Source: Candidatus Omnitrophota bacterium (GTDB lineage: Bacteria; Omnitrophota; Gorgyraeia; Zapsychrales; JANLHA01). From it: DNA of 32,000 nucleotides. Position numbers and translations under genes: made by a program. The stretch lies in assembly GCA_963662715.1 (NCBI GenBank), contig OY759724.1, forward strand, positions 2,880,001 to 2,912,000, written 5' to 3'. Position 1 is the stretch's first letter; every line of letters starts with the position of its first letter. Shown in pieces: positions 1,724 to 24,758 of the stretch. A model generated the notes under the pieces. That model was not told where the DNA came from. It saw only the letters and a program-made list of their open reading frames with translations, and ran no database searches.

Positions 1724-3232
1724 ATGAAACTCTCCTTAATTTTTAATCCGTTTTCCTATAAGGTTCATGAGGAAAATATAAGAGTCGTCCAGAAATATTT
1801 CGGACTGTTCCCGCCTTTGAGCCTCGCTTGGGTTGCTTCCATTGCCGAACAGGCGGGACACCAGGTTCAATTGGTTGATGCCCGCACTTTGAGACTTTCC
1901 ATGGAAGCCACGCTCGAAAAAGTCCGGGATTTTCAGCCGGACATCATGGGATTCATGATGACGACATATATGTTCCAGGACACGTTGCTTTGGATCAAGT
2001 TCCTTAAACAGCATCTAAATATCCCGGTTCTTATCGGCGGATACAATCTGAGAGTTTATCCCCGGGAGTCTCTTTCTCATCCGGAAATCGATTTTGGTGT
2101 TGTTGAACATGCGTATTACACCGTTCCCCGGCTTTTGGAAGAGCTTGAAAGCGGCCGGCGTGATTTCGATAAAGTGCCCGGCCTGGTTTATAAACGCAAC
2201 GGCCAGATCGTGGTCACGCCGCATCCGCAAAAAATAGAATTTGATAAGTTCCCCAACCCGGCCCGGCATCTTTTACCCAATGAGCTTTATGCGGAATTCC
2301 CTACGGAGCGGAGGAACTTTACCGTCATGGTGACATCTCTCGGCTGTCCGTATGGTTGTACATTTTGTGAGGCAGGCCAGACGCCGTACAATCCCCGTTC
2401 TCCGGAGACAGTGGTCGCTGAGATGGAAGAATGCTACCGGAACTACGGGATAAGGGAAATTGATATCTTTGATTATGAGTTTACGGGTATCCGCAACCGT
2501 GTCATGCGGATTTGTCAATTGATAAAAAAGAAAGAGCTGGATATTATCTGGGCCTGCCGTTCCCGGATTGATACCGTTGACCGGGAGCTTCTGAAAGAAA
2601 TGAAAGAAGCGGGATGCCGGCGAATATATTTTGGGGTGGAATCAGGCCGGCAGGAGCTCCTGGATAGAGTTCATAAAGGATATTCCATTGCCCAGATCAG
2701 GGACATTATCGCGGTGTGCTCTGATTTGGGTATCCGCACTCTGGGCTTCTTTCTTATAGGAGCTCCGGGGGATACCCGGGAAACCGTGAAGGACACGGTG
2801 GCCTTTGCAAAAACACTTGATTTGGACTATGTCCAGTTTTCCAAATGTCTGGCCAAACCGTTAACGCCTTTGTGGAAGGAGATGGTCGCCCAGGAAAAGA
2901 AGGATTATTGGCGGGACTGGATTCTGGGCCGGGAGGTGGATCGGGAGTTGCCCCGTCCGTGGACAGAATTAACAAATCAGGAAATAGACCGGTTGGCCCG
3001 CTGGGCGTACGTTTCATACTATGCCAGACCCTTTTTCCTCTGGAAGCATTTATGCAAAATAGCTTCGTTTTCTGAATTGAAAAGAAAAGTTTTTGCCTTG
3101 TTCGATATGGTTTTTAAACAGGAATCCTATTCTCGTCCGGATGCCCATTTCGTGGCTTTTAACGAGAATCCCGGAATGAAACTGACGAAATATCAGACGT
3201 CAAAGGGCTGCCCTGACGACGGGGGCTTATGA
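1724..3232 (+). CDS. B12-binding-domain radical SAM enzyme (class B-like)
   Basis: N-terminal Rossmann-like B12-binding-type segment FPPLSLAWVASIAEQAGHQVQLVDA ... VLIGGYN. CxxxCxxC cluster SLGCPYGCTFC (Cys codons about 2345-2368). YFGVESG motif. gagg upstream of the ATG. Confidence 0.9.
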   Translation: MKLSLIFNPFSYKVHEENIRVVQKYFGLFPPLSLAWVASIAEQAGHQVQLVDARTLRLSMEATLEKVRDFQPDIMGFMMTTYMFQDTLLWIKFLKQHLNIPVLIGGYNLRVYPRESLSHPEIDFGVVEHAYYTVPRLLEELESGRRDFDKVPGLVYKRNGQIVVTPHPQKIEFDKFPNPARHLLPNELYAEFPTERRNFTVMVTSLGCPYGCTFCEAGQTPYNPRSPETVVAEMEECYRNYGIREIDIFDYEFTGIRNRVMRICQLIKKKELDIIWACRSRIDTVDRELLKEMKEAGCRRIYFGVESGRQELLDRVHKGYSIAQIRDIIAVCSDLGIRTLGFFLIGAPGDTRETVKDTVAFAKTLDLDYVQFSKCLAKPLTPLWKEMVAQEKKDYWRDWILGREVDRELPRPWTELTNQEIDRLARWAYVSYYARPFFLWKHLCKIASFSELKRKVFALFDMVFKQESYSRPDAHFVAFNENPGMKLTKYQTSKGCPDDGGL

Positions 3233-4506
3233 TTTTTAGACCGATTCCAAGACAGAAATCTTCTAATTCCCTGAGCGACTTATGCCGTGTTTTTGAATTG
3301 ATGCGGGAGAAAGGTTTTTTTCAGGGCGAAGGCATCAGGGCGTTTGAAACAGAGTTCGCGCAGGCTTACGGCGTCAGACATGCCTTGGCGACGGGATCCT
3401 GCCGTTCGGCCTTCTCGCTGGCGCTTGATGCTTTAGGGATTCAAAGCGGGGACGAGGTGATACTGCCGGCCTTTAATATGCCGGCATTTCCAAAAATATT
3501 AAGATACAAGGGGATTAAACCGGTCTTTGTCGATATTCATGAAAGGACGCTTAATATTGACGAGACATTGATAGAGGAAAAGATTACCGCCCGGACCAGG
3601 GCCATTGTTGCGGTGCATTTGTTCGGCAACACGTGTCCCATGGACCGGATCATGACTTTGGCCCGAAAGCACCGGCTGGTTGTTATTGAGGACTGTGCCA
3701 ATGCTTTTAACACGCCGTATCAAGAACGTTTGGCCGGGACTTACGGTGACGTGGCGTGTTTTAGCCTGGGTTCGACAAAAGATATCCCCACATGGGGTGG
3801 CGGGGTCATTATTACGAATGATTCCGCCCTTTTCAGCAAATGCGTCGATCTGTATGAACGAAATTTTGTGTTCCCTTCTTGGACCGAAGTGACAAAAAAT
3901 CTTATTAAAGGAGCTTTGATGCAGTTGTTGTCATTGAAATTTTCTTATCTTCTGTTAATTTTTCCCATGAACCTTTTCTGTTCACTCGTTCATTTTGACC
4001 CTTTGGACTATGTGATTGAAGAGAAGGACCGGGAGATGAGTTGTCTTCCGCAAAAGAAATACACCAACTTTCAAGCGCTTATTGGAATAAACAAATTCCA
4101 AAAGAGCCGGTTTTTTCAGGAAAAGCGCGGCGCTAACGCCCGGATTTTAAACGACCGTTTGTCTGAATGCCCGGCCATTGTCACACCCGGGGTTCTTGAA
4201 GGCGGTAGCCACGCCTACTGGAATTATCCTCTGCTGGTCCCTTGCCGGAGGCCGTTTGTCCGGGCATTGTTACGGCACGGCATCGGGACAAAGACGATTG
4301 ACACTTATGACTGTAATGGATTGGATATCTTCCGGGAATACCGGCAGATGTGCCCCAAAACAGAAGAGGTGGCCCAAAAGATTTTGGTTCTTCCTGTTTA
4401 TCATCACTTGAATAAAAATGATGTGGAATTTATGGCCGCAATTCTTAAGAAGACATATTCTAAGCTGGCGCTCCAGGACCGGGGGGAGGGCTGCTCGGGG
4501 ACATGA
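3229..4506 (+). CDS. DegT/DnrJ/EryC1/StrS-family PLP-dependent aminotransferase
   Basis: FETEFAQAYGVRHALATGSCRSAFSLALDALGIQSGDEVILPAFN, VIEDCANAF and PLP-lysine context FSLGSTKDIPTWGGGVIITND. ATGA overlap with the upstream stop. Confidence 0.9.
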   Translation: MIFRPIPRQKSSNSLSDLCRVFELMREKGFFQGEGIRAFETEFAQAYGVRHALATGSCRSAFSLALDALGIQSGDEVILPAFNMPAFPKILRYKGIKPVFVDIHERTLNIDETLIEEKITARTRAIVAVHLFGNTCPMDRIMTLARKHRLVVIEDCANAFNTPYQERLAGTYGDVACFSLGSTKDIPTWGGGVIITNDSALFSKCVDLYERNFVFPSWTEVTKNLIKGALMQLLSLKFSYLLLIFPMNLFCSLVHFDPLDYVIEEKDREMSCLPQKKYTNFQALIGINKFQKSRFFQEKRGANARILNDRLSECPAIVTPGVLEGGSHAYWNYPLLVPCRRPFVRALLRHGIGTKTIDTYDCNGLDIFREYRQMCPKTEEVAQKILVLPVYHHLNKNDVEFMAAILKKTYSKLALQDRGEGCSGT

Positions 4507-6035
4507 ATGAAATGAATCTGAAAAACAGGCCTAAAATTCTGCTGCTGAGGTTATCGCCCGGTATTTATAAACATTCCCATCATCCCATCGGGCATCGGCC
4601 GCCCTATACGCTGAAATATATCGAAGCTTTGTTAAGGCAAGATCGGCACTGCGAGGTGAGGTTTATTGATCAGCGCGTTTCAAAGCTGTCGGTAACTGAT
4701 ATCGAAAAGGATATGAAACAATGGGGGCCGCAGTATGTTGTTTTTGATATTTCATCGTTAAACCTGGACATCAGTATAAAATTTTGTGAAAATATGACCC
4801 CTAAAAGCCCTTCCGCAAAGATCATAAGCCTTTGTGTCGGGCAATCGCCCAGCGCCGATATCCGCACTTTTAAAAGGCAGTACCGGCAGTTTGATTTTGC
4901 TTTGGCCGGCGAAGCTGAACTTGAAATCCATAAAATTCTTCAATGCCTTTATCAAGGCCGGTCCGTTGAAAATATTCAGCACATGTATCAACAGGAGGGG
5001 ACCGCCGATCGCCTCTGGACGGTGGAAGATCCTGATCAGATGCCTTTCCCGGAATATGACGGGGAATCGTTGAAAGGATATTCTTTTGTTTATCCCTTAA
5101 GAATGGCTCAGCGGATTATCTGGGGGCATATGCTGAGCAGCCGGGGCTGCCCTCATCAATGCGTTTTCTGTTCCCAGATCATGCGAGAAAGCTACGGGAG
5201 ACGCGTGCGCCTGCGGTCCGCATCTTCTGTCGTGGATGAGATGGAACACTTATTGGCCTCCGGGGCGAATGTCATCAGTTTTGATGACGATAATTTTACA
5301 AGTTCCCCTCAGCATGTGCAGTCTATCTGTGAGGAGATATTGCGCCGGAAATTAAAAATCCGCTGGATCGCCCATGCGCGCATTGATGAAATTAACGCCG
5401 ATCTCTTGAAACTTATGGGACACAGCGGTTGTGTTCTGTTAAGATACGGGATTGAAACAGCCAGTGAGAGAATCCTGCATGTGTTGCACAAGACCCGTGA
5501 GACATCTCTCTGGTTGAAAAAAGCCCGGGAAGCTGTCCTGCTCTCCCGACAGAACGGTATTTCTGTCGCATGTTTATTTATGATCGGATGCCCGAGTGAG
5601 ACACAGGAAGAGTTAAAGCAAACCATCCGGTTTGCTCAGGACATTAATCCGGACATTATCCAGGTGGCCTATTTTACGCCTTTTCCGGGTTCGCATTATT
5701 ATAAAATTTTCCGGGAAACGTTTTCCCGGTATAACGTGACACAGCTGTACCATTACAGTATCCCCAGTATCAATCTGAGTCACATGACGGAACGGGAATT
5801 CCGGTCGGCACAGAAATCGTTTTACAAAAGTTTTCTCCTGAGGCCGGCTTTTATCATAAATCATTTCCGGAAATACACTTTTTTTTACATGGCGAATCCC
5901 GATGTCTTTTTGAAATTGATTAAGGTTAAAAAACTGACTCAGCAGAGAGGCCCGTTATCTCCGGAGGCAGGATGCTTTGAAAAAACACCCGGAAGGTCCC
6001 CCGCGGTCTGTCAGGAGTTGAAAGAACAGCCCTGA
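4503..6035 (+). CDS. B12-binding-domain radical SAM enzyme
   Basis: N-terminal RPPYTLKYIEALLRQDRHCEVRFIDQ. CxxxCxxC SSRGCPHQCVFC (about 5148-5171). YGIETAS motif. ATGA overlap with the upstream gene. Confidence 0.9.
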   Translation: MNEMNLKNRPKILLLRLSPGIYKHSHHPIGHRPPYTLKYIEALLRQDRHCEVRFIDQRVSKLSVTDIEKDMKQWGPQYVVFDISSLNLDISIKFCENMTPKSPSAKIISLCVGQSPSADIRTFKRQYRQFDFALAGEAELEIHKILQCLYQGRSVENIQHMYQQEGTADRLWTVEDPDQMPFPEYDGESLKGYSFVYPLRMAQRIIWGHMLSSRGCPHQCVFCSQIMRESYGRRVRLRSASSVVDEMEHLLASGANVISFDDDNFTSSPQHVQSICEEILRRKLKIRWIAHARIDEINADLLKLMGHSGCVLLRYGIETASERILHVLHKTRETSLWLKKAREAVLLSRQNGISVACLFMIGCPSETQEELKQTIRFAQDINPDIIQVAYFTPFPGSHYYKIFRETFSRYNVTQLYHYSIPSINLSHMTEREFRSAQKSFYKSFLLRPAFIINHFRKYTFFYMANPDVFLKLIKVKKLTQQRGPLSPEAGCFEKTPGRSPAVCQELKEQP

Positions 6036-6082: not shown

Positions 6083-7489
6083 ATGAAACAGATATATCTA
6101 TTGTATATTAATGCCGCCAGCGAAAGTTCCCTGGATTACTCGGGATTGCTGCAGACGAATTTATTAAAGGTTGTCCCGAAACTGGGGCTGCAGTATTTAC
6201 ACGCGGTATTGCATCAGCATGATTTTCCGGCTGTATTATTGGACCAGGAGATAGAACCTTTAACCCTTAAAATATTGTCTGATAAATTTCATGAACAGCC
6301 GCCTCTTTTCGTCGGGATTTATTCGTCGGAAAGGATCCGAAGCACGACGATCCGTTTTATTCAACAACTCCTGGCCGCCTGGCCGAGACTGATGATTATT
6401 GTCGGCGGGCCGGATTATTTCAGCTATGAAAGCTATCTTAAAGCCGGGTGCACCTTTGTCTGCCACGGGGAAGGGGAAAAAACAATTGTCGAAATAGCGA
6501 AATATGCCCGGGGCGAATTGGCCCTGGATGCCTTAAAAGGGGTTTATTACAGGAAAGGGACGGAGGTTGTCCGGACAGAACCGCAGGAGCTGATCGATGA
6601 CTTGGACCGGCTTCCGTTTCCCCGAAGAGAGCATCTTCACGCATACGCGGATTTTCATTATCTCGGCATGGTTAAGCCTTATGTGCACATGATAACATCC
6701 CGCGGCTGCGGCTGTTCCTGCAGTTATTGTTCGTCCCCTTATATCTGGGGCAGGCGGGTGCGGAGGAGAAGCATCGAGAATATCCTGGCTGAGATTGATG
6801 ATCTTGTCGGCCGATGCCAGATCCGCTATATCAGTTTTAAAGATGACCGGTTCTTTTCGAATTTGGCTTGGCTGAGGACATTTTGTCATGCTTTGATTGA
6901 AAGAAAATATTCGTTGCGTTTTAACTGCAGCGCCTGCCCGTCAGATTTTAAAAATGACTGGGAAGAGAAGATTGACCTGCTGAAGGCGGCCGGCTGTGAT
7001 GCCCTTATTTTGGGCCTGCAGTCAACAGACAAATCCATACTGCAGAAGATTCACCGTAATCCCGATGAAGTGGACTTTTTGAAGCCAGTTATCGCTTATG
7101 CGAATAAAGTCCGCCTTTTTACGATTGTGGAATTCATATTCGGGCTGCCGGGGGATACGGAACAATCGCTTCAGCAGACGATTTCGTACGTGATGAAGAT
7201 AAAGCCCTATTTTATCCAGTTCAACAGGCTGATGCTTTTTAAGGGGTCGGAGTTGAACGCTTTGAGGGAAGAGCCGGCGCCCTTTTGCGCCCTGACAACC
7301 CGGCAAATTAAAAGAATCATTTTAAAGGGATATCTGCGTTTCTATCTGCACCCGCAGGTTTTTTATAAAAATATCCGATATGTTTTGCGGCATAACCCCC
7401 GCTGGTTCGTGAACGCCCGGCGCGTGTGGTTATATCCCTTACTGCTCGGTTATAACTATTTTCACAGCATGAAAACTTTACATCGGTAA
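6083..7489 (+). CDS. B12-binding-domain radical SAM enzyme
   Basis: N-terminal VPKLGLQYLHAVLHQHDFPAVLLDQ and IIVGGPD. Cluster motif TSRGCGCSCSYC. LGLQSTD motif. Confidence 0.87.
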   Translation: MKQIYLLYINAASESSLDYSGLLQTNLLKVVPKLGLQYLHAVLHQHDFPAVLLDQEIEPLTLKILSDKFHEQPPLFVGIYSSERIRSTTIRFIQQLLAAWPRLMIIVGGPDYFSYESYLKAGCTFVCHGEGEKTIVEIAKYARGELALDALKGVYYRKGTEVVRTEPQELIDDLDRLPFPRREHLHAYADFHYLGMVKPYVHMITSRGCGCSCSYCSSPYIWGRRVRRRSIENILAEIDDLVGRCQIRYISFKDDRFFSNLAWLRTFCHALIERKYSLRFNCSACPSDFKNDWEEKIDLLKAAGCDALILGLQSTDKSILQKIHRNPDEVDFLKPVIAYANKVRLFTIVEFIFGLPGDTEQSLQQTISYVMKIKPYFIQFNRLMLFKGSELNALREEPAPFCALTTRQIKRIILKGYLRFYLHPQVFYKNIRYVLRHNPRWFVNARRVWLYPLLLGYNYFHSMKTLHR

Positions 7490-7494: not shown

Positions 7495-8415
7495 ATGAAC
7501 ATCGCTTTTATGAAAAAAACACAAATCCTCCTGGCCCCGGCTCTGACCGCGGTTATTTTCGTGATCCTGTTCCGCTATATTTCTCTGACGGAGGTCGTCC
7601 GGATAACGAAAAATTGCCATATCAATATCCTTTTGTGGACTTTAGTGGTCTCGGCAGGGTCAAATATTTATATCAATGCCTTAAGATTTCAGAATATTTT
7701 AAGGCAGCTGGGAATCCCTCTTTCGCTTTTCGAAACAATACTGATCAAAGGGGGCGGTTCGCTGTTTAAAGTTTTTATGCCGGCCCGCAGCGGTGAATTC
7801 GTCATGATGGCTTACCTGAAACGGGTGAAAGACCTGTCTTATATCCAGTCCTTTTTTCTGATCATATCCGAATACATTCTCAACCTTTCGGCGCTGATCC
7901 TTTTTTTTCTTACAGGCTTCTTGTGGTCAATCAACCAGCCTGCTGTGAACCGGCATACCCTGGCCATGATTATTATGTTCCCCACGGAAGAAAATCCTTC
8001 TTCCCGGGGATTCCGGGCCGTTTTTCATAAATGGCTTCCGGATATTAAAGACAACGTCAGCCTTTTCCGCCGATTATGTTTCCGGAAAACCATTATTTTT
8101 TATACGCTGCTGTATATGGGAGCTGAAGTGCTGACATTTTATCTGTTGGCACACGCCCTGAACATTTTTATTCCTTTCGGTATTGTTCTCATGCTGATTC
8201 CGGCAGCCTTTTTGCTGAGCAGCCTTCCGCTCACTTTGGGAGGGCTGGGCCTGAGAGAGTGCGCCGTATTGTTTTTATTTTCATCCTATGCCCCGGCAGA
8301 AGAGCTGTTGTCTTTGGGCGTTCTTTATTCTTTTGTTGAAAACCTTTTCCCTTTGCTGATTAACGGATCTCTGTCCGGTCTTTTTCTTTCCAGGTTATTG
8401 AAAGGGGAGCAATGA
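7495..8415 (+). CDS. Flippase-like polytopic membrane protein (lysyl-PG synthase TM-region / UPF0104-like)
   Basis: Multiple hydrophobic helices. C-terminal signature SLPLTLGGLGLRECAVLFLF, typical of the LPG_synthase_TM family as I recall it. Confidence 0.65.
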   Translation: MNIAFMKKTQILLAPALTAVIFVILFRYISLTEVVRITKNCHINILLWTLVVSAGSNIYINALRFQNILRQLGIPLSLFETILIKGGGSLFKVFMPARSGEFVMMAYLKRVKDLSYIQSFFLIISEYILNLSALILFFLTGFLWSINQPAVNRHTLAMIIMFPTEENPSSRGFRAVFHKWLPDIKDNVSLFRRLCFRKTIIFYTLLYMGAEVLTFYLLAHALNIFIPFGIVLMLIPAAFLLSSLPLTLGGLGLRECAVLFLFSSYAPAEELLSLGVLYSFVENLFPLLINGSLSGLFLSRLLKGEQ

Positions 8416-9404
8416 TAAGTTATAAAAAAATTTTTCCAATTGTCGGACATATTTTGGCCGCTAAGATGTGTCATATCCCGTGCCCCCTGGCGGTCCGCTG
8501 GGCGTTAACTTATCGGTGCAATCAGCAGTGTTTGTATTGCGGTATCCCGCACCGGAAGGATTACTATGAATTGGATGCGGCCGGTATTTGCCGTATGCTG
8601 GATGATTTTGTGCGCCTGGGCACACAATGGATTTCTTTCTCCGGAGGGGAGCCTTTGCTCCGGGACGACCTTCCTGCGATTGTGAAGCATGCGAAAAAGC
8701 GGGGTTTTTTTGTGACACTCAGTACGAACGGAAGACTGCTGCCGGAAAAAATCCGGGATTTGCGATGTGTCGACCGCATCAAAATAAGCCTGGACGGCCC
8801 TCAAGATGTCCATGACCGCATCAAAGGCCAAGGGTCTTTTCAAAAGGTCATGGAGGCTTTGGCCTTATGTCAGGAACAGGCTATCCCGGTTGCTGTGGAT
8901 TGTGTCATTTCGAAATTCAACGCCGATGTCATTGAGGAATGTCTTGGGATCGCTGAGGCCCGTCATATCCCGATATCCTTTCAGCCGGCGACGATAAGGC
9001 GGTTGCCCCGGGATGAGGAGGAGGATTATCTGGTGCCGGCGGATAAATACAGAACGATTATAGAGCTTTTAATTGCCTTGAAAAAGAAGGGAGCCCGCAT
9101 AGAAAACTCCGTGGCCGGGTTGCGCCATCTTGGGCATTGGCCTGTTCCTCGGTCTATCCCGTGTTCCATGGGATTATTAAGTTATAATGTGGAACCCAAC
9201 GGGATCATCGGGGCTTGCATCGATAAATCCTATATTTATGTGGGGCGGGATGAATCGCAAGGGCAGGAGTCCCTTCGGACAATCTTAAAAAACGCGAAGC
9301 CGCCGTCTTCTTGCCGGGAATGCTGGTGCGGAGCTATGGTGGAATTTAACCTGATAAATTCTTTCAACCTGGATGCTATTTTTAATCGCATGAAATATTC
9401 ATGA
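8412..9404 (+). CDS. Radical SAM enzyme with C-terminal SPASM/twitch-like Cys cluster
   Basis: ALTYRCNQQCLYCG (CxxxCxxC) and FSGGEPLL. C-terminal Cys pattern PCSMG...GIIGAC...SSCRECWCG. ATGA overlap with the upstream gene. Confidence 0.85.
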   Translation: MISYKKIFPIVGHILAAKMCHIPCPLAVRWALTYRCNQQCLYCGIPHRKDYYELDAAGICRMLDDFVRLGTQWISFSGGEPLLRDDLPAIVKHAKKRGFFVTLSTNGRLLPEKIRDLRCVDRIKISLDGPQDVHDRIKGQGSFQKVMEALALCQEQAIPVAVDCVISKFNADVIEECLGIAEARHIPISFQPATIRRLPRDEEEDYLVPADKYRTIIELLIALKKKGARIENSVAGLRHLGHWPVPRSIPCSMGLLSYNVEPNGIIGACIDKSYIYVGRDESQGQESLRTILKNAKPPSSCRECWCGAMVEFNLINSFNLDAIFNRMKYS

Positions 9405-9445: not shown

Positions 9446-10660
9446 ATGTTAAAAAAGTTTCCTAAAAGAAATATTTTTATATCCGAAAAAGAAATAAAAG
9501 CGGTATTGTCTTTTCTGTTTCGTCCGCGAGTCAGGGCTGAAGATTTTGTCAGAAAGTTTGAAGATAATTTCAGTCGGCACATCGGGGTAAAAGAGGCTAT
9601 CGCTGTCGGCTCGGGCCGGTTCGCTTTGTCTTTAATCCTGAGATCCCTGGGAGTGCAAAGAGGCGATGCTGTTTTACTCAGCGCCTATAACTTTACCGGT
9701 GTGCCCGAATCGTTACGGCAGGAGGGGGTGGAGCCTCATTTTGTTGACGCCGATCCGTCAACTTATCAAATGAACATCGATCTGATCCCGCAAAAAATCA
9801 CTGAAAAAACTAAAGTTCTCCTGGCCACGCATCTTTTCGGGCAGCTATCCGACACGGACCGGCTGGCGGATCTGGCCCGGGAAAATCACCTCTACCTCAT
9901 AGAAGATGCCGCGCAGGCTTTGGGAAGCTTTTATAAAAACAGGCCGGCAGGAACACGGGCCGATATCGGGCTGTTCAGTTTTACGGGCAGTAAATTGCTT
10001 AATACGTCCTGGGGTGGGATGATCGTTACAAACAACGCAGACTTAGCCGGAAAGATCCGTCAGGAGTTGTCCCGTTATCCTGCTCTCGGCACAGCCCAGG
10101 CCGTTTTCTTCAGGGTGAAAACTTATGCCTATGCTTTGGCGACCCAGCGTGCTTTTTACAGTTATCTGGTCTATCCTCTGACGGTGTTGTTTTATTTGTG
10201 CGGTATTGACCTTTTTGCGGCTTATAAAATGTTTGACCGCCGGGTGTCTCCCTACAAGAGGAACGGGCTGAATAATTTGCAGGGGTATCTGGGCCTCGAT
10301 CAGATGGACCGGCTTGAACAGTTTATAAAAAAGCGGAAAGAGTACGCCGGCAAACTTCTGGCCCAATTGGCCCCTGCGATATCTTTGCAGAAAGGCCCCC
10401 CGGACGCCGACCCGTGTTATTTTATGATCCCCCTGAAAGCAAAACACAAGGGGGAGGCCTATAAAAAACTGCTCCTTAAAGGGATTGACAGCAATATTCA
10501 GTATGCGGCCGATTGTTCGGGATTGACAGGGGTTCATAATCCGTGCGCAGCGGATTTATCCCAACATATTTTAACGATGAATTTGCCTTTGCGCATGAGT
10601 GATCAGGATATAAATTATATGGCGCAATCCATAAATGATTTAAAAGATATGTTAGAATGA
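9446..10660 (+). CDS. DegT/DnrJ/EryC1/StrS-family PLP-dependent aminotransferase (second paralogue)
   Basis: FEDNFSRHIGVKEAIAVGSGRFALSL, LIEDAAQALG and PLP-lysine context FSFTGSKLLNTSWGGMIVTNN. Confidence 0.88.
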   Translation: MLKKFPKRNIFISEKEIKAVLSFLFRPRVRAEDFVRKFEDNFSRHIGVKEAIAVGSGRFALSLILRSLGVQRGDAVLLSAYNFTGVPESLRQEGVEPHFVDADPSTYQMNIDLIPQKITEKTKVLLATHLFGQLSDTDRLADLARENHLYLIEDAAQALGSFYKNRPAGTRADIGLFSFTGSKLLNTSWGGMIVTNNADLAGKIRQELSRYPALGTAQAVFFRVKTYAYALATQRAFYSYLVYPLTVLFYLCGIDLFAAYKMFDRRVSPYKRNGLNNLQGYLGLDQMDRLEQFIKKRKEYAGKLLAQLAPAISLQKGPPDADPCYFMIPLKAKHKGEAYKKLLLKGIDSNIQYAADCSGLTGVHNPCAADLSQHILTMNLPLRMSDQDINYMAQSINDLKDMLE

Positions 10661-17018: not shown

Positions 17019-18317
17019 GTGAGCCGTATATTATTGTTAAAACCTTACTGGCCTTATCCTTACGGGAAGGGAGAGCATACATATAACCGTATCTGGGCGC
17101 CTTTGTCTTTATTGAACTGTGCCGCGATCCTTCAGCAGTCCGGACACCAGCCTTATATCTTGGATGCCCATGCCCTGCGCATAAAAGCGCGAAAGCTGCG
17201 GCCGTATTTACAGGGATTTGAAAAGATCGTTATTTCGTCTTCCTGTTTGGATAGATGGCAATGCCCCAACATTGATATCACGCCGTTTCTAGAGGCTGTG
17301 GAAAATCTCAAACAGGTCACCGCGGAATTTTATGTGACAGGGTATCACGGGACAAGGTGTCCTGAGGATATGCTCAGAAAGACGGGAGCGAAAGCGGTCA
17401 TCCGGGGGGAACCGGAATCCGTTATCCTGGATATTGCCAGCGGTAAAAGTCTTCAGGATATCCCCGGGATAACTTATGCCGGGCACAGCCGCATTGTTTC
17501 GAATCCTGACGCCTGTCTCCCGGATTTAAAAACATTACCCGTGCCGGCCTACCGTTTGTTAAACCCCCGGAAGTATTTTTACGAAATCTTGGGCGGAAGA
17601 TTCGCTTTGCTGGAATACAGCCGGGGATGTCAATACCAGTGCACATTCTGCAATAAGGTCATGTACGGTTCCGGATTGAGGCTCAAGTCTGCCCGCCAAA
17701 TGATCGAGGAAATCCGGACCGTCGTCGAAGAATGTCATTTCCGTTCCGGGTATTTTATCGATCTGGAATTCCTGTCCGACAGGGAAATGGTGGAGGATAT
17801 CTGTGATTTTTTTATAACCGAAAATTACGATTTCAGATGGTGCTGTCAGACCAGAGTTGACTCTTTGGACGGCGATATCCTGATGAAAATGAAGAAAGCC
17901 GGCTGCCAGCTGATTCATTTTGGGGTCGAAAGCGGCAAGCAGAAATTTTTAAATGAAACACGCAAAGGCTTTAAGCTGGACAGGGCCATGCCGTCAGTTA
18001 AACTCTGCAAAGATGCCGGGATAAAAACACTCGCTTTTTTTATCTTCGGATTTCAGGAGGAAACAGCCCGGGACAGGGCAGAGATACTCGAATACGCAAA
18101 GACTTTGGACACGGATTACGTCTCTTTTCATAAAATATTCCCTTATGCGCAGGATAATGGAAGTGTCCCGGAATTCCGGCCGGATGAAATAGACGCGTTT
18201 ATCCGTCAGGCTTTTTTGCAGTATTATTTAAGGCCGGCGTGCCTGAAAAAATTGGATTTTAATGTTCTGTTGCGCTCTGTGAGGTTGTTATGGGCCCGCA
18301 TGACCTCATTGTCGTGA
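17019..18317 (+). CDS. B12-binding-domain radical SAM enzyme
   Basis: WAPLSLLNCAAILQQSGHQPYILDA. YSRGCQYQCTFC cluster. HFGVESG motif. GTG start preceded by an aagggag SD. Confidence 0.87.
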   Translation: MSRILLLKPYWPYPYGKGEHTYNRIWAPLSLLNCAAILQQSGHQPYILDAHALRIKARKLRPYLQGFEKIVISSSCLDRWQCPNIDITPFLEAVENLKQVTAEFYVTGYHGTRCPEDMLRKTGAKAVIRGEPESVILDIASGKSLQDIPGITYAGHSRIVSNPDACLPDLKTLPVPAYRLLNPRKYFYEILGGRFALLEYSRGCQYQCTFCNKVMYGSGLRLKSARQMIEEIRTVVEECHFRSGYFIDLEFLSDREMVEDICDFFITENYDFRWCCQTRVDSLDGDILMKMKKAGCQLIHFGVESGKQKFLNETRKGFKLDRAMPSVKLCKDAGIKTLAFFIFGFQEETARDRAEILEYAKTLDTDYVSFHKIFPYAQDNGSVPEFRPDEIDAFIRQAFLQYYLRPACLKKLDFNVLLRSVRLLWARMTSLS

Positions 18318-18350
18318 CCTCTTTTAAAATACGGAATCAAGACAATATTG

Positions 18351-19964
18351 ATGAACGATGCGACACTAAAAAAATTTATTGCGGCGGCCGTTTTGCTGTG
18401 CATGACATTTTTGATCTTTTTTCATCTGGGACATTATGCTTTCTGGGATGACGAAGCTATCTGCGCTTTATTCGCCAAATCACTTTTTGAGCATGGGGAT
18501 ACGAGCGCTGTTTCAGGTCATAATCTGATTGCCTTCAATGACGGCCGGGAACTGGAAAATCTTCATCAAAGATATGTCCCCCCGCTGCAGTTTTATTTTG
18601 CCGCTCCCTTTGTCGGGCAGGGAGGAGGCTCGACCTTCATCGCCCGGTTCCCTTTTGCTGTTTGCGGTTTGCTGACGGTTGCCGTTATTTTCCTCTGGCT
18701 TTGGAGAAGCCGTGCTCCAGTTTATACCTGGCTTTTGATGTCAGCCGGGATATTGGGAAACGTTTCCTTTATCCTCTCCTGTCGGCAATGCCGTTACTAT
18801 GCCCTGAGCATGCTCCTGACTGTTCTTCTGGCATTTTTATATTATTTTAGAACCCCCAAAAAACAGACCGTTTTGGCCATGGCAGGCGTGTCCTTGTTGC
18901 TTTTAGCTTCCAATTATTTGTGTTACGCGGCTGTTATGGGATGTTTGATCATGCATGACATCATCTGGGGCAGGAAGAGGCATGCCTCCAGCCGCTCGGA
19001 TATTCTCCTTTTCTGGGGTATGCAGCTTTTCCTCGGGGGCCTCATTGTTTTGACGTATAATCCTTTGGGAAAAAATGTCTGGGATATCTCCTCGGATTCC
19101 TGGCTCAGGAACAGAACAGCTTTATTCTTCTGGAATTTTCGTGATTTGAACAGCTGTGAAATGGGCGTGGGGATTCTTATCGCTTTGTGCCCTTTTTTGT
19201 ATTTTTACAAAAAAGACCGCCGTTTCCTGCAGTGTCCCGCTCTTATTGTGACATATATTTTGATCGTATCGTTATTCACCCCGCACCCTTTTGATATGCT
19301 GTGGGTCGCTTTTGTCCGTTATTTGTGTCCCTTAATCCCGCTCTGTATCTATACGGCTGTGCTGGTTATCCAGACTTTATCCGGGCACAGGCGCTGGCTG
19401 CTCATTCTTCTGGCTTTTCTGGCCTTCGGGACCAATGTTTTGCACGGAGGCCCGTTGACCAGGGTCAAACGGCACACAGCTTTCAGCCATGCCGTCGCTC
19501 ACGGACATTTCCGTTCGACGTTTGTTGAATATTTCAATGAATTGTTGACCGCAAGGCCCAATCCGTATCAATTAGTTTCTGACTGGATTAATGGCAACCT
19601 GCAGACCGGGGATACGGTCTGGGTCGTGCCGGGATACGCCAATTATCCTCTTATGTTTCACGCCCCCAAGGTTGTATATGCCTGGCAGCTCACGGAAAAA
19701 CAAGGGCAGTTTTCGAACCTGCCGGATATTCATTTTAAAGGTGAGGAATGGCCTGATTACATTATCGCTTTCGGCCCGAACCTTCTGGATGTTTTTGCAT
19801 TCTTTGAAAATAAAGAGGAGGCCTTTCCCTATGAAATGATCGATCAGATAAACATTTTTTGGTCATCCTTGACCCGTCCGGAACTTTTTTGGCATTCATT
19901 CCGTGAGATTGAGAATTATTCCCTTGCGACGGAAGCCATTTATATTTTTAAGTTTTCAGAATAA
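18351..19964 (+). CDS. GT-C fold membrane glycosyltransferase, GT39/ArnT (PMT_2)-like
   Basis: First-loop acidic motif FWDDEA followed by more than 10 hydrophobic helices and a soluble C-terminal domain. ATG at 18351 is preferred to the TTG at 18348. Confidence 0.7.
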   Translation: MNDATLKKFIAAAVLLCMTFLIFFHLGHYAFWDDEAICALFAKSLFEHGDTSAVSGHNLIAFNDGRELENLHQRYVPPLQFYFAAPFVGQGGGSTFIARFPFAVCGLLTVAVIFLWLWRSRAPVYTWLLMSAGILGNVSFILSCRQCRYYALSMLLTVLLAFLYYFRTPKKQTVLAMAGVSLLLLASNYLCYAAVMGCLIMHDIIWGRKRHASSRSDILLFWGMQLFLGGLIVLTYNPLGKNVWDISSDSWLRNRTALFFWNFRDLNSCEMGVGILIALCPFLYFYKKDRRFLQCPALIVTYILIVSLFTPHPFDMLWVAFVRYLCPLIPLCIYTAVLVIQTLSGHRRWLLILLAFLAFGTNVLHGGPLTRVKRHTAFSHAVAHGHFRSTFVEYFNELLTARPNPYQLVSDWINGNLQTGDTVWVVPGYANYPLMFHAPKVVYAWQLTEKQGQFSNLPDIHFKGEEWPDYIIAFGPNLLDVFAFFENKEEAFPYEMIDQINIFWSSLTRPELFWHSFREIENYSLATEAIYIFKFSE

Positions 19965-20104
19965 CAATATGTTGATGTTGTTTTTGTCCGATATCTGATA
20001 TAAAACAAAAAATGCATGGTATCCTTGAATATATGAGGTAAAATTTAAGATTAGACTTGATAAAGATATCCTGGCGATATCCGTTGTATGATTTATGTGA
20101 ACAT

Positions 20105-20809
20105 ATGGACAGACAAGCCACCTCCATTTCGATTGTTCTTCCTGTTTTTAATGAGGCCGGTAATATTGAAACGACCATGCAGGAAACTGTGAACTTTTTT
20201 AAGCAGGAAAAATTTTTCCCCGAATATGAGATTATTATTGTTGATGACGGCAGCACGGATAATTCTCCCCGAGTCTTGGACGGGCTCTCGGGAAAAATCG
20301 AACGGTTGTCTGTTGTCCGGCATGCCCAAAATCGGGGCTACGGAGCCGCTTTAGTGACTGGAATAAAGAAAGCCCGGCATCCCTGGATTCTGCTCATGGA
20401 TGCAGACGGCCAGTTTAAAATCAATTCCATCCTGGACATGATCCCCCGCATGAACAGCTGTGATGTCCTTGCCGGTTACCGGCGGAAGAGAACCGATTCC
20501 CGGATAAGGATTTTGCTGGGGAAGACTTATACTTATCTTGCGTTTTTGCTTTTTAAAGTAAAATTAAAGGATATTAACTGCGGATTTAAACTTCTGAGAA
20601 AAGATATCATTGATATTGATGCCGTGAGTTCTCATGGCGGGGCTTTTTATACGGATTTTTTTATCAAGACCCAGAAAAAAGGCTGCCGGATTGAGCAGGT
20701 CCCGGTCGAACATTTCCCCCGTTTAAAAGGGAAACAGACCGGAGCGAGCTTCAAAGTTGTTTTGGCGGCGATGATTGATGTTTTTCGATTATTTTTTATT
20801 GATAGATAA
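20105..20809 (+). CDS. GT2 polyprenyl-phosphate glycosyltransferase (DPM1/ArnC/GtrB-like)
   Basis: SIVLPVFNEAGNIE, IIIVDDGSTDNS, RGYGAAL and LLMDADGQF (DxD) motifs. ATG 20105 gives a canonical N-terminus, whereas the track start 20057 is a TTG. Confidence 0.87.
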   Translation: MDRQATSISIVLPVFNEAGNIETTMQETVNFFKQEKFFPEYEIIIVDDGSTDNSPRVLDGLSGKIERLSVVRHAQNRGYGAALVTGIKKARHPWILLMDADGQFKINSILDMIPRMNSCDVLAGYRRKRTDSRIRILLGKTYTYLAFLLFKVKLKDINCGFKLLRKDIIDIDAVSSHGGAFYTDFFIKTQKKGCRIEQVPVEHFPRLKGKQTGASFKVVLAAMIDVFRLFFIDR

Positions 20810-20900: not shown

Positions 20901-22127
20901 ATGACGATAGGATTCATGCGGCGTATCGATTATTGGTTCGGGATCCCGGCGTGTTTTTTTCTTTCCATATTTCATGCCGTATTTAAAAAGCTGGCCCGTC
21001 CCAAACAGCCTCCGGCACCCATCAGAAAAATTCTCTTTTTAGAGCTGTCCGAGATCGGAAGCACCATCCTGTCTTATCCTGCCATCACCAAGGCCAAAGA
21101 GCTGTTCCCGGAGAGCGAGCTTTTTTTCTGGATTTTTGAATCCAACCAGGATGCTGTGCATGTCCTGAAAGTTATTGACCGAAAAAATGTTTTAACTGTT
21201 AGGACAAAAAATTTGTTCATCTCCGCAAAAGACCTGATAAACAATTTACGGAGGATCCGCAGAGAAAAAATCGATGTTGTCCTTGACTTGGAATTGTTTT
21301 CCAGGTTCAGTTGTGTTTTATCCTTCCTGTCCGGAGCCCCCCGCCGGGTCGGGTTTCACTCATTCGCCCAGGAGGGGCTTTATCGCGGGAATCTTCATAC
21401 GCACAGAGTCTCTTATAACCCTTACCAGCACATTTCCGTGAATTTTCTTTCTCTTGTCAGCGGGATCAATGCGCCGCTAGATCAAGTGCCCCTTGTCAAA
21501 GAATATTATGAAAAGAAGGGCTGCGATATCCTCCTGCCGAAGTTAAAATCAACGGGAGACGGGAAGAAAGCCATTTGGAAAAAGTTGAAACAGATTGCTC
21601 CGGATATTGACGAAAAGAAAACAATTGTTGTTATCCATCCCGGGATCAAGGAAGCTTTGCCTTTGCGCCAATGGGCCTTAGGCCACTATTTGGAACTGAC
21701 CCGGAGGTTGCTCCTGAATCCCAATGTCTTTATCGTTATGGCCGGGGTGCTTTATGAATCGCTGGATAAAGATATTGTCGAGCAGTTGCGTATGCCCCGT
21801 TTGATAAATCTAATAGGGAAGACCTCGATCCCGGAGTTGATTGATTTGTTCAACGTATCTGATATGCTGATCAGCCATGACGGCGGTATTATTCATATCG
21901 CGTCTTTAACCCCCGTTCATATCATTGCCCTTTTCGGCCCGGAGACGCCTTCCTTGTACCAGCCGTTGACAGACAATAAGACAATTTTATATCGGCCTTT
22001 GTCCTGCAGCCCTTGTTTAACGGCCTACAATCACCGGATTTCCATGTGCCGTGACAATCAGTGCGTTCGGGAGATTACTGTCGAAGAGGTTCTGGAAAAG
22101 GCTTTGTGTTCTTTGCCGGATGCCTGA
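20901..22127 (+). CDS. GT9-family glycosyltransferase (heptosyltransferase-like)
   Basis: C-terminal signature LISHDGGIIHIASLTPVHIIALFGPETP and overall GT-B-like length. aaagag lies upstream of the ATG. Confidence 0.78.
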   Translation: MTIGFMRRIDYWFGIPACFFLSIFHAVFKKLARPKQPPAPIRKILFLELSEIGSTILSYPAITKAKELFPESELFFWIFESNQDAVHVLKVIDRKNVLTVRTKNLFISAKDLINNLRRIRREKIDVVLDLELFSRFSCVLSFLSGAPRRVGFHSFAQEGLYRGNLHTHRVSYNPYQHISVNFLSLVSGINAPLDQVPLVKEYYEKKGCDILLPKLKSTGDGKKAIWKKLKQIAPDIDEKKTIVVIHPGIKEALPLRQWALGHYLELTRRLLLNPNVFIVMAGVLYESLDKDIVEQLRMPRLINLIGKTSIPELIDLFNVSDMLISHDGGIIHIASLTPVHIIALFGPETPSLYQPLTDNKTILYRPLSCSPCLTAYNHRISMCRDNQCVREITVEEVLEKALCSLPDA

Positions 22128-23057: not shown

Positions 23058-24758
23058 ATGCCAAGGGAAAAGAAACCACTTTTAAATTTTCGCCGCTTTG
23101 ACTGGCAAAAAAATCCTTATATAAAATTTGGGGTCATAATATTGCTCATTGCCTGCGCCGCAGCTTTACGCATGTATCGTGTGAGCTATTACGATATGTC
23201 TTTTGAGGAAATCGGGACCGAGGTGTATACGTTCCAGAACTTAAACAGGATTTCCCAGGCAACAGGAATGTCCCAGTTTTCTCTGTTTTTCAAGAAAATG
23301 AAAAACGATCCCCATTCCAGTTTTTCTTATCTGTTGGTGTATTTCTTCAGCAAGGTGTTCGGTGACGGGAAGATATTAAGATATTTGTCCGTCATTTTCA
23401 GCCTCTGGGCATGCGTGATTTTTTACCGGCTGTCCCGTATGTTATTTCCCCCCCGGGTAAGCCTGTATTCAACAATGATCCTGGCCATTCATCCGTTCCA
23501 TATTTGGTATGCGCAGGAGGCGAGGATGTATGCGGCTATGACGTGGATCTCTTTGTTGGCGTTCTATGCTTATTTCAAGGCGCTGAACACAAATAAACTT
23601 GTCCCCTGGATGAATTTTGCTCTGGCAAGTTTGCTGGCTTTCAATTTCAGTTATTTTTATGGATTATGGCTTTTGGCTTCAAGTGCGCCTTTTTTCTTTA
23701 AAAAATACCGGCCTTTTTTAAAAAAATGGCTTTTTTCTGTTGTGTTCGTTTTTTCTGTGCAAATATTCCTCTATCCTGTTTTTTTAAGCCAGTACGGGTT
23801 CGTGAAACACAGTTTCTGGATCCCTATTCCTACCCCAGAAACGTTGTTTTGGACTTTCCGGGTTTTTAATTTAGGCTACACGTCCTCTTATCCACAGTAT
23901 CATTTAGCATTGTTCCTTTTTTCGTGTTTATTCGTGTTTGGGGCCTGCCGTTTGTATAAAAAAGACCACATTTTAACTGTAACGATATTAAGCTTTATTT
24001 TTTTCCCGATTCTTTCGGCCTTTGTTATTTCAAAACTTGTGGCCCCGGTTTATATTAACCGGCAATTGCTTATTTTTTCCCCTTTATATTATTTGTTCAT
24101 TGCCTACGGTATCGACCGCCTGGCCCGGAAAGAACTCCGCGTATTCGTGTTTTTATTCGTTATTCTGCTTATTTCCACATCTCTTTACAATTATTATGGC
24201 GGCTACATGTTTTATCATCCTTTCCGGGCTAATCTCCTGGGCGGCGTCTTCCCCAAAAAGAGATATCTGCATTTATTCGACTCTTTAATGAAAGAATTCC
24301 GCCCGCACGATATCCTGGTGGCCGGAGACCTGCAGTCTTATATCCTCCTGCGGTCGTATCTTTTGAAAAACGACAAGACATGTCCTGTTTCCGTTGACCA
24401 GTTAAGGTTCCTTTTTTATCCGGAAGATCTTTTCCGCTTTTCGCAGCGTTATTTAAAGATCAACAACCTTATTGAACAAATGCCTGAGAAAGAACTGTCG
24501 GAATTGCATGAATTCCAGTTATTTGAAAATGATACCCGCCGGTTAAGAAAAAGCGACCTGGAAAAGGAATCTTTCCGGCGCATATGGCTTGTTCTGGCCA
24601 GCTGGGAGCCCGAAAGGCAATTGAGCGCAGAAGCGGGTGTTTTGCATGTTAAGTTGGCAGAGCAGTATCGTTATGTCTCTTGGCAGCAGAACGACGGGAT
24701 ATTTGTGGAGCTTTTTTTGCAGGATCGCAGGGGGGGCGCCGGGGAACCTATCCCTTGA
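23058..24758 (+). CDS. GT-C fold membrane glycosyltransferase, GT39/PMT_2-like
   Basis: Polytopic protein. Contains HPFHIWYAQEARMYA, a motif I associate with PMT_2/COG1807-type transferases. C-terminal soluble domain of about 170 aa. Confidence 0.7.
   Translation: MPREKKPLLNFRRFDWQKNPYIKFGVIILLIACAAALRMYRVSYYDMSFEEIGTEVYTFQNLNRISQATGMSQFSLFFKKMKNDPHSSFSYLLVYFFSKVFGDGKILRYLSVIFSLWACVIFYRLSRMLFPPRVSLYSTMILAIHPFHIWYAQEARMYAAMTWISLLAFYAYFKALNTNKLVPWMNFALASLLAFNFSYFYGLWLLASSAPFFFKKYRPFLKKWLFSVVFVFSVQIFLYPVFLSQYGFVKHSFWIPIPTPETLFWTFRVFNLGYTSSYPQYHLALFLFSCLFVFGACRLYKKDHILTVTILSFIFFPILSAFVISKLVAPVYINRQLLIFSPLYYLFIAYGIDRLARKELRVFVFLFVILLISTSLYNYYGGYMFYHPFRANLLGGVFPKKRYLHLFDSLMKEFRPHDILVAGDLQSYILLRSYLLKNDKTCPVSVDQLRFLFYPEDLFRFSQRYLKINNLIEQMPEKELSELHEFQLFENDTRRLRKSDLEKESFRRIWLVLASWEPERQLSAEAGVLHVKLAEQYRYVSWQQNDGIFVELFLQDRRGGAGEPIP

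Follow-up and report, generated by a model that had tools for sequence, protein, structure and literature searches.

A radical-SAM-rich gene array with putative polyprenyl-phosphate sugar and GT-C machinery in an uncultivated Omnitrophota bacterium

Gene content of the array

The locus examined here lies in a 32-kb stretch of contig OY759724.1 (positions 2,880,001 to 2,912,000) of an uncultivated Candidatus Omnitrophota bacterium, which is referred to as the window. In the open reading frame (ORF) list of the window, 16 genes, all on the + strand, span positions 1724-24758 and form an array of ~23 kb (Table 1), in which genes for radical S-adenosylmethionine (SAM) enzymes stand among genes for DegT-family aminotransferases, an amide ligase, a flippase-like protein and glycosyltransferases (GT). 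An earlier note, made from the letters of the sequence, had described the array as co-directional and partly translationally coupled, and this description was borne out: the ORFs lie at the positions it gave, all on one strand, with 4-nt gene overlaps at 3229, 4503 and 8412 and an 11-nt overlap at 12058. The remaining intergenic gaps are mostly 5-121 nt, with one exception of 930 nt (22128-23057). Seven of the ~23 window genes encode radical SAM enzymes (P ~3.5e-6 at a genomic frequency of 3%, a value that was assumed and not measured), a density far beyond chance at that assumed frequency; when the divergent gene at the left edge is counted as well, the neighbourhood has at least eight. No match was obtained in the window with Rfam at the gathering threshold, hence no cobalamin or SAM riboswitch, and no tRNAs were found there. 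Scans for promoter and terminator consensus gave 38 and 48 sites against ~28 expected.

Table 1. Genes and other features of the 32-kb window, with the family or structure match on which each assignment is based
Feature	Position	Strand	Basis
R1 (g1724), radical SAM with B12 domain, conserved anchor	1724..3232	+	Radical_SAM 85.7, B12-binding 55.3 bits
g3229, DegT-family pyridoxal phosphate aminotransferase, translationally coupled to R1	3229..4506	+	DegT 250.7 bits
g4503, radical SAM with B12-like domain, accessory	4503..6035	+	Radical_SAM 60.1, B12-binding 31.0 bits (sub-cutoff)
g6083, radical SAM with B12 domain, accessory	6083..7489	+	Radical_SAM 66.2, B12-binding 43.1 bits
g7495, LPG_synthase_TM (MprF/HpnL-type flippase-like), core partner	7495..8415	+	PF03706 111.7 bits
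g8412, radical SAM without B12 domain, core partner	8412..9404	+	Radical_SAM 95.7 bits
g9446, second DegT-family aminotransferase, hydrophobic insertion	9446..10660	+	DegT 201.2 bits
g10782, GT-C glycosyltransferase (PMT_2/GT39-like)	10782..12068	+	PMT_2 99.1, PMT 39.3 bits
g12058, membrane protein of a rare family, 13 transmembrane segments	12058..13611	+	Foldseek on AlphaFold2 model
g13568, radical SAM with B12-like domain	13568..15103	+	Radical_SAM 75.1, B12-binding 29.0 bits (sub-cutoff)
g15054, AsnB-like adenylating amide ligase	15054..16988	+	Asn_synthase (PF00733) 198.3 bits
g17019, radical SAM with B12-like domain, accessory	17019..18317	+	Radical_SAM 67.5, B12-binding 24.6 bits (sub-cutoff)
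g18348, GT-C glycosyltransferase, ArnT-like fold (model)	18348..19964	+	AlphaFold2 and Foldseek
g20057, GT2, polyprenyl-phosphate sugar synthase type	20057..20809	+	Glycos_transf_2 106 bits
g20901, GT9 (heptosyltransferase-family GT-B), core partner	20901..22127	+	Glyco_transf_9 (PF01075) 64.6 bits, cutoff 22
g23058, GT-C-like membrane protein	23058..24758	+	PMT_2 25.2 bits, cutoff 26.1 (sub-threshold)
g30521, radical SAM with B12 domain, runs off the window end	30521..32000	+	Radical_SAM 66, B12-binding 63.7 bits
Start (~21 codons) of divergent radical SAM gene continuing past the left edge	1..65	-	blastx/blastn
HEAT-repeat protein with N-terminal hydrophobic segment	488..1660	+	HEAT_2 118.5 bits
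Small ORF, 90 aa	22583..22855	+	Strong Shine-Dalgarno AAGGGAGG
AAA_15/AAA_21 ATPase, 659 aa	24948-26927		Best PADLOC matches AbiLi, Old, AriA, PtuA, GajA
PEP-CTERM sorting-signal protein (g27144), 2.4 kb downstream of the array	27144-27779		
cREC_REC receiver-domain protein	28418-28873		
IS200-type Y1 transposase, 110 nt upstream of g30521	29982-30410		

Six of the radical SAM proteins had been taken as B12-type enzymes. Radical_SAM was matched in all six at 60-86 bits, above the Pfam cutoff of 29.5 bits, and exactly one CxxxCxxC motif is present in each of the seven radical SAM proteins (CPYGCTFC at residue 208 of g1724; CPFSCSYC in g30521). The B12-binding part of the claim held for three of the six (g1724, g6083 and g30521), and the other three (g4503, g13568 and g17019) stayed below the cutoff of 32.1 bits. 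Translation of g13568 could also begin at the in-frame ATG at 13628. Pairwise identity among the B12-type paralogues is only 20-36% (36% for g13568 and g4503), and a recent tandem duplication is thereby excluded. The top NCBIfam families of each B12-type protein include HpnJ and/or BchE, all far below cutoff, and HpnJ is the best or co-best family for g1724, g4503, g13568, g17019 and g30521 (97-174 bits). For g1724, hereafter R1, the best NCBIfam match was HpnJ (TIGR03471) with 174.1 bits against a cutoff of 577.6, while the best match in the PDB was AprD4 (6fd2, E 3e-25), a sugar diol dehydratase, whose family model scored 105 bits against a cutoff of 500. BchE and HpnJ gave ~146 bits with g4503; BchE, PhpK and HpnJ gave ~120 bits with g6083, PhpK scoring between the other two; HpnJ gave 136 and TIGR04295 127 bits with g17019, each below its cutoff. 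Sub-threshold similarity of the B12-type proteins to the ladderane lipid radical SAM enzyme and to HpnJ/HpnR was seen too. Neither HpnJ nor BchE, both class B radical SAM enzymes, is a methylase (PMC9204698). The earlier note had expected a heavily C-modified (methylated or rearranged) product; heavy C-methylation is not supported, since the nearest relatives HpnJ, BchE and AprD4 are not methylases and three of the six B12 domains are sub-threshold.

The seventh enzyme, g8412, had been called a SPASM/twitch radical SAM protein. Its radical SAM domain is clear, but no Pfam SPASM (PF13186) match was obtained; the C-terminal cysteines (C251, C269, C301xxC304xC306) form a pattern that is compatible with a reduced SPASM/twitch domain. 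Its best PDB match was BlsE (7vob, E 2.6e-11), a sugar-nucleoside decarboxylase, followed by PqqE and SkfB. A BtrN-like dehydrogenase was considered for g8412 and rejected, BtrN being absent from the PDB or NCBIfam matches listed for it; DesII was likewise absent among these listed matches. Radical SAM proteins bearing PF13186 do occur in two related loci (L001 and L004); on the locus maps they are not of the g8412 type, and they have no bearing on it.

The two DegT proteins, the AsnB-like ligase, the GT2, the flippase-like protein and the GT9 had all been named earlier, and each is supported by Pfam. Both DegT proteins keep the catalytic Schiff-base Lys (SLGSTK in g3229, FTGSK in g9446) and, relative to solved DegT structures such as 7b0d, both have an insertion of ~50 residues between the large and small domains. 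This insertion holds the most hydrophobic 19-mer of the protein (Kyte-Doolittle 1.7-1.8; residues 236-254 in g3229 and 241-259 in g9446), and several DegT proteins from related loci have a hydrophobic insertion as well, which suggests a membrane-association element and work at the membrane surface. The best PDB matches of g3229 include scyllo-inosose and 2-deoxy-scyllo-inosose aminotransferases, and the ArnB model gave 134.8 and 116.3 bits with the two proteins against a cutoff of 631. The AsnB-like protein g15054 was closest in NCBIfam to the XrtA/PEP-CTERM amidotransferase (255 bits, cutoff 816.9); it scored 209.9 bits with the asparagine synthetase model TIGR01536 (cutoff 267.1) and so is no equivalog. 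No Cys nucleophile follows the Met: the protein starts MSLLRG, and the internal options MTDF and MGMLSW also lack it. Its glutaminase domain is probably inactive, and an ATP-dependent amide ligase is likelier than a glutamine amidotransferase because the N-terminal Cys nucleophile is missing. The gene overlaps its upstream neighbour by 50 nt, so that its true start is uncertain.

The GT2, g20057, matched ArnC (9hwj, E 3.5e-14), DPMS (5mlz) and GtrB (5eke) best in the PDB, over residues 15-244. Its scores with the NCBIfam models PgfS, PpgS and ArnC were all sub-threshold (62.5 bits for ArnC, cutoff 529). The GT9, g20901, is a distant member of its family: heptosyltransferase models II (WaaF-type), I and III gave 77.5, 49 and 41.5 bits against cutoffs of 134.6, 185 and 170, respectively, and the best PDB matches, 3tov and 1psw (WaaF), reached ~35 bits. 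It carries an N-terminal hydrophobic extension of ~40 residues and a C-terminal C369xxC372...C383xxxxC388. This four-Cys motif resembles a metal site and lies beyond the stretch aligned to solved GT9 structures. A TibC-like protein heptosyltransferase was considered for g20901 in view of the four-Cys tail and rejected, the PDB sequence search having returned 3tov and WaaF only.

Four large membrane proteins come into question as GT-C transferases, where the earlier note had counted three or four. GT-C enzymes by definition use polyprenyl-phosphate sugars as donors. The assignment is firm for g10782, which has 10 hydrophobic segments and an SDE motif after the first transmembrane segment (TM1), and for g18348. 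The latter gave no Pfam match, and its family profile found no PDB match by sequence; a few of its >300 homologues carry PF13231 or are named GT39/ArnT-like. Its AlphaFold2 model, built from 36 sequences, had a predicted local distance difference test score (pLDDT) of 90.4 and a predicted template modelling score of 0.91, and Foldseek placed it next to ArnT (5ezm, E 1.8e-7, TM-score 0.57), then ALG9/ALG12, STT3, DPY19 and Pmt4. Furthermore, W33, D35 and E36 of the WDDE motif after TM1 are invariant in the 36 sequences. Judged by this model, g18348 is a GT-C transferase; the database copy of the protein begins at 18393. The ArnT model itself scored 27.4 bits in the window against a cutoff of 567. 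For g23058, with 9 hydrophobic segments and a D..EE motif, the PMT_2 score was sub-threshold, and for g12058 the case is weak. The latter had neither a Pfam match nor a PDB match by sequence, its family profile included, and only 13 homologues were found in ~5.8 billion proteins, among them a 443-aa paralogue (P0133) in the same genome. Its model had a pLDDT of 79.5, and the top Foldseek matches, every one a GT-C structure, were EmbA/B, ArnT, AftA and PglB (probability 0.96-1.0, E 0.05-0.2). No conserved acidic motif was found in its first loop, and hhalign of the g12058 and g18348 families gave a probability of 17%. Going by its model, g12058 probably has a GT-C fold. The flippase-like protein g7495 has ~7 hydrophobic segments, and its gene overlaps that of g8412 by 4 nt.

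Conserved core and surroundings of the array

Relatives of R1 were sought in one genome per GTDB species and were found in 174 species, the best 80 of which were used for taxonomy and loci. These 80 are 62-81% identical to R1 and come from Omnitrophota, Elusimicrobiota, Auribacterota, Desulfobacterota, bins of the Planctomycetes-Verrucomicrobia-Chlamydiae (PVC) group/Chlamydiota and one Aminicenantes bin. Nearly all R1-bearing genomes were metagenome-assembled from environmental samples, and the taxa that carry the relatives fit the earlier guess of an anaerobic host. In the protein database, >120 clusters lie at 64-81% identity to R1, mostly from Candidatus Omnitrophota, and they carry generic, YgiQ or BchE labels in the source annotations.

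Synteny over the full length of the array is limited to the closest relatives (L003, L006 and L007), where the order is HEAT, R1, DegT, radical SAMs, PMT_2, g12058-type, g13568-type and AsnB. Orthologues of g4503 (49-55% identical) were present only in these three loci and in L004. A YfhO-like protein occurs in L003. The idea that the 23-kb array is conserved as one unit did not survive this comparison, in which only a dispersed core proved to be conserved and the rest lineage-specific. Across phyla, the core consists of GT9, R1, a 30521-type B12 radical SAM protein, an 8412-type radical SAM protein, LPG_synthase_TM and GT-C. The 30521-type was found near R1 orthologues in 26 loci, in 14 of them directly downstream (+1); GT9 in 24-31 loci, directly upstream (-1) in 14-18; the 8412-type in 14-29 loci, downstream and most often second (6-8 loci); and LPG_synthase_TM in 27 loci, directly downstream in 9. 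DegT stood at +1 in 6 loci, and g23058-type proteins occurred near R1/GT9 in 12 loci at offsets -2 to +2. PMT_2 was near the top of two Pfam censuses of the neighbours (8/124 and 8/136 sampled neighbours), and among the recurrent neighbours in these censuses there were no genes for ADP-heptose synthesis. For example, L081 has the order GT9, R1, 30521-type radical SAM, 8412-type radical SAM and LPG_synthase_TM; L050 and L052 show the same order minus GT9; and in L077, GT9, R1 and the 30521-type radical SAM are followed by one unassigned ORF and then the 8412-type. A tally of 32 non-redundant loci that extend at least 8 kb to either side of R1 gave 24 with GT9, LPG_synthase_TM, GT-C or GT2, and 23 with another B12 radical SAM. 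All core members occur in the window, but scattered; the core is the evolutionary unit, and this genome holds an expanded, partly scattered version of it.

R1 is also tied to polyprenyl-phosphate sugar enzymes in other genomes. In L004 (10001-12211, P0048), an R1 orthologue is naturally fused with an ArnC/PgfS-like GT2, and further downstream an ArnC-like GT2, a YdjC deacetylase (HpnK-like; 160 bits with the HpnK model, cutoff 232.6) and an HpnJ-like B12 radical SAM stand side by side. In L005 (Elusimicrobia), a decaprenyl-phosphate phosphoribosyltransferase (253 bits, above the cutoff of 234) lies a few genes downstream of the R1 orthologue; after it come three B12 radical SAMs and a DUF2079 membrane protein.

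The main rival to a role in sugar tailoring is direct lipid remodelling, in which R1 and its radical SAM partners would act on a membrane lipid or lipid A by, for example, alkyl-chain methylation, cyclisation or cross-linking (as with GrsA/B, Hgm, Tes/Mss and the ladderane enzymes), with LPG_synthase_TM as the lipid-handling partner and the glycosylation genes separate. In ~8 loci, a clade comprising L023, L033, L035, L036, L045, L049, L074 and L075, R1 and LPG_synthase_TM occur together on their own among unrelated genes; the extreme conservation of R1 across phyla fits a universal lipid substrate, and the sub-threshold NCBIfam similarity to the ladderane radical SAM and to HpnJ/HpnR points the same way. 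Moreover, the class B radical SAMs include many enzymes that modify lipids (PMC13459092; 10.1101/2023.10.20.563219). The fusion of R1 to an ArnC-like GT2, the GT9 directly upstream of R1 and the DegT gene coupled to R1 here and following its orthologues elsewhere argue for a sugar instead, as does AprD4, the best solved relative of R1, which acts on a sugar; furthermore, there are no lipid-synthesis genes in the window. We give lipid remodelling by the R1/LPG_synthase_TM pair a small chance. The surroundings of R1 in L023, L033, L036, L049 and L075 include genes for a Memo-like protein, a purine nucleoside phosphorylase and an exonuclease, and one genome (MFD02416.bin.2.262) has two loci of the R1 and LPG_synthase_TM type, L033 and L036.

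The scattering of the core raises a further alternative, namely that the region is not one system and that independent modules lie side by side in a gene-dense, radical-SAM-rich region, radical SAM genes being common in Omnitrophota. With the full array confined to three relatives, core genes dispersed here, a 930-nt gap and an IS200/defence island in the region, and a tandem GT-C battery that occurs without R1 in L087, this has some appeal. It is set against several gene overlaps of 4-11 nt, the same combination of families around R1 in different phyla and orders, and the fusion that ties R1 to GT2, and we consider it improbable. The battery in L087 (1045-9698, Omnitrophota) comprises five tandem GT-C genes (PMT_2, YfhO-like, PMT_2, a g18348 homologue and PMT+TPR), then DegT and a short-chain dehydrogenase/reductase (SDR); large GT-C batteries seem typical of Omnitrophota.

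At the left edge of the window, positions 1-65 (-) match the 5' end of a Radical_SAM gene that stands upstream of the HEAT gene in L003 and L007, and the HEAT gene itself occupies offset -1 relative to R1 in L003, L006, L007 and L024. The AT-rich 930-nt gap contains a small ORF (22583-22855) whose product has an N-terminal hydrophobic signal or transmembrane segment and a six-Cys tail. It had no homologue in the related loci that were fetched. The product may be secreted, may sit in the membrane or may serve the adjacent GT-C as an acceptor substrate, and membership of the ORF in the array is uncertain. No pseudogene remnant was detectable in the gap against the proteins of neighbouring loci. 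Beyond the array, an OLD-like ATPase, a PEP-CTERM protein, a REC protein and an IS200 transposase separate g30521 from the other genes, and the stretch between has a lower G+C content. From its matches, the ATPase at 24948-26927 is probably a stand-alone OLD-family defence nuclease. Taken together, the PEP-CTERM, cREC_REC and IS200 genes point to an insertion that divided the radical SAM locus.

A proposed envelope-modification pathway and its alternatives

To our knowledge, sugars in the known envelope pathways are tailored by NAD(P)-dependent dehydratases, by epimerases and by methyltransferases of the ordinary kind. In this locus, six or seven radical SAM enzymes, and no such conventional tailoring enzyme, accompany a complete polyprenyl-phosphate sugar/GT-C apparatus, which suggests that amino or rearranged sugars are made anaerobically by radical chemistry. 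We regard it as moderately probable that the locus modifies an envelope glycoconjugate by way of a polyprenyl-phosphate sugar that is flipped and then transferred by GT-C enzymes, and that radical SAM tailoring takes the place of NAD(P)- or O2-dependent enzymes. In this pathway, the GT2 g20057, judged by homology, would load a sugar onto polyprenyl phosphate, and tailoring would take place at the cytoplasmic face of the membrane. R1 with the coupled DegT g3229, and g8412 with the DegT g9446, would produce keto intermediates that are then transaminated. Pfam found no SDR 4,6-dehydratase in the window that would form them in the conventional way, and the keto step may be a radical oxidation or dehydration of the AprD4, BtrN or DesII kind. 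The other B12-type enzymes may carry out rearrangement, ring contraction or methylation, and the Cys-less AsnB-like ligase g15054 may make an amide. LPG_synthase_TM (g7495), from its family and context, would translocate the lipid-linked product, which g10782, g18348 and probably g23058 and g12058, going by fold and family, would transfer to periplasmic acceptors. Candidate acceptors are the lipopolysaccharide (LPS) core or lipid A, the inner part of which is possibly built by the GT9 g20901, or secreted proteins: the association with GT9 points to the LPS inner core or lipid A, and secreted proteins are possible in view of the PMT-type GT-C and the nearby PEP-CTERM protein.

The logic of the Arn, Gtr and PMT pathways, which the earlier note had recognised in the array, is supported by the nearness of the GT2 to ArnC, DPMS and GtrB, the ArnT-like fold modelled for g18348, the fusion in L004 and the recurrent neighbours of R1. 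Like the Arn pathway and the related Bordetella Lgm pathway, the locus has DegT, an ArnC-like GT2, a translocation step and a GT-C of ArnT fold. Neither Pfam nor NCBIfam found an ArnA, ArnD or ArnE/F family among the window proteins; the locus has instead an LPG_synthase_TM flippase candidate, six or seven radical SAMs, an AsnB-like ligase and four GT-C-type proteins. On family content, it is not a member of the Arn pathway. The three-component glycosylation systems (Gtr, CsbB-GtcA-YfhO and PMT) are alike in overall logic and enzyme folds; they transfer unmodified hexoses or N-acetylglucosamine (GlcNAc), have no tailoring enzymes and use GtrA/GtcA as flippase. In mycobacteria, the decaprenyl-phospho-arabinose route tailors its sugar on the polyprenyl carrier before GT-C transfer, by the DprE1/E2 flavo/NADH enzymes and not by radical SAMs. 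This route comprises a UbiA decaprenyl-phosphate phosphoribosyltransferase (DPPR synthase) and GT-C arabinosyltransferases. An enzyme that passes the DPPR-synthase cutoff stands near the R1 orthologue in L005, whereas the window has no UbiA gene.

In its radical step, the locus is like the hopanoid side-chain system HpnI/HpnK/HpnJ/HpnL, which likewise combines a GT2, a class B radical SAM and an LPG_synthase_TM-type protein, HpnL being a member of that family. The window differs in having no YdjC, and its GT-C transferases are not part of the hpn system; furthermore, no squalene-hopene cyclase, HpnH, HpnG, HpnI or HpnK was found in the 32 kb with Pfam/NCBIfam. The conversion of hopanoid-bound GlcNAc to the cyclitol ether uses a GT2, a deacetylase and a radical SAM (PMC13459092), and the GT2, YdjC and HpnJ-like radical SAM in L004 represent the same order of chemistry. 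Radical SAM action on lipid-linked sugars has precedents in HpnJ and in calditol synthase, Cds (PMC13459092, PMC9204698). HpnJ acts on a lipid-linked amino sugar, and Cds sets an example of ring chemistry by a radical SAM enzyme on a sugar bound to a membrane lipid (PMC13459092). Cds is archaeal, works on glycerol dialkyl glycerol tetraether lipids and converts a lipid-bound hexose into a cyclopentyl head group; it is likened to the locus by chemistry, not by sequence.

Two radical-SAM-related gene sets from uncultivated lineages were compared and set aside. The radical-SAM-rich Elusimicrobia cluster of 10.1101/765248 is different, being built around NifHDK paralogues, and the Omnitrophota Hbs/Mss lipid genes of 10.1101/2023.10.20.563219 are SPASM-type AhbD relatives and not R1.

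A conventional surface polysaccharide (O-antigen, capsule or PEP-CTERM-linked exopolysaccharide), for which the radical SAM and DegT enzymes make nucleotide sugars and the membrane proteins serve as polymerases or ligases, has in our view a slim chance. Variable gene content around a conserved anchor is as in glycan loci, the AsnB-like protein is closest to the XrtA/PEP-CTERM amidotransferase with a PEP-CTERM protein 2.4 kb downstream, and the GT9 suggests LPS. Pfam, however, found no Wzx, Wzy, Wzz, ABC exporter, initiating phosphoglycosyltransferase, nucleotidyltransferase or SDR dehydratase among the window proteins, and NCBIfam found no family of Wzx flippase, ABC exporter, Wzy polymerase, chain-length regulator or initiating phosphoglycosyltransferase. 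A polymer-type glycan locus is disfavoured because Wzx, Wzy, the exporter and the initiating enzyme are missing; moreover, the membrane proteins match GT-C transferases and not WaaL or Wzy, and the sole cytoplasmic GTs are one of polyprenyl-phosphate type (GT2) and one GT9.

Radical SAM genes alternate with DegT genes in the array, and partnerships of the two are known from the antibiotic pathways of AprD4(+AprD3), DesI-DesII-DesV and BtrN-BtrS, whose enzymes take soluble nucleotide sugars or pseudo-oligosaccharides as substrates. A secondary-metabolite cluster for an aminoglycoside- or aminocyclitol-like compound would be in line with such pairs, with the (2-deoxy-)scyllo-inosose aminotransferases among the matches of g3229 and with the match of g1724 to AprD4. 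We hold it to be very improbable: genes for a cyclitol synthase, for resistance or for export were not detected, such clusters do not typically contain four GT-C-type proteins with a flippase-like protein and a GT9, and the core is vertically widespread in several phyla. The locus belongs to none of the systems compared, as far as family models can tell; no window protein reached a curated NCBIfam equivalog cutoff, and every one was missed widely. Our literature searches turned up no paper on the cluster or on the R1 family. The component families are all known, while the pathway and its conserved core are uncharacterised.

Several points weigh against the proposed glycoconjugate pathway. With no equivalog cutoff reached, each specific chemistry is inferred, and tailoring may take place either on the nucleotide sugar or on the lipid carrier. 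The GT-C assignment of g12058 and g23058 is weak, and we know of no LPG_synthase_TM protein that has been shown to flip polyprenyl-linked sugars. The 930-nt gap and the IS-bearing island interrupt the locus. Among the 32 loci tallied, GT2 was present in just 8 and DegT in just 8, and the clade with R1 and LPG_synthase_TM only would also fit a direct lipid substrate.

Meaning for uncultivated anaerobes

The locus is unusual in the number of its radical SAM enzymes, in lacking the conventional enzymes of sugar tailoring and in having an anchor that is mis-annotated and highly conserved across several uncultivated anaerobic phyla. A bolder reading, which we think unlikely but worth stating, is that the core represents an undescribed pathway, widespread in these phyla, in which radical chemistry turns a lipid-bound sugar into a new head group for the envelope. 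The sugar might, for example, be contracted to an aminocyclitol ring in the manner of HpnJ and Cds, or be dehydrated and transaminated with no NAD-dependent dehydratase taking part. If this were true, LPS, lipids or proteins would carry a decoration of a new class, and R1 would be a new radical SAM activity on polyprenyl-phosphate-linked substrates.

Some Omnitrophota are thought to attach to host cells. R1, currently mislabelled YgiQ or BchE in some annotations, is a defined and clonable target. Its characterisation would yield a new class-B-type radical SAM activity and would reveal an unknown envelope component, which might serve as a lipid or glycan biomarker for abundant anaerobes that are still uncultivated.

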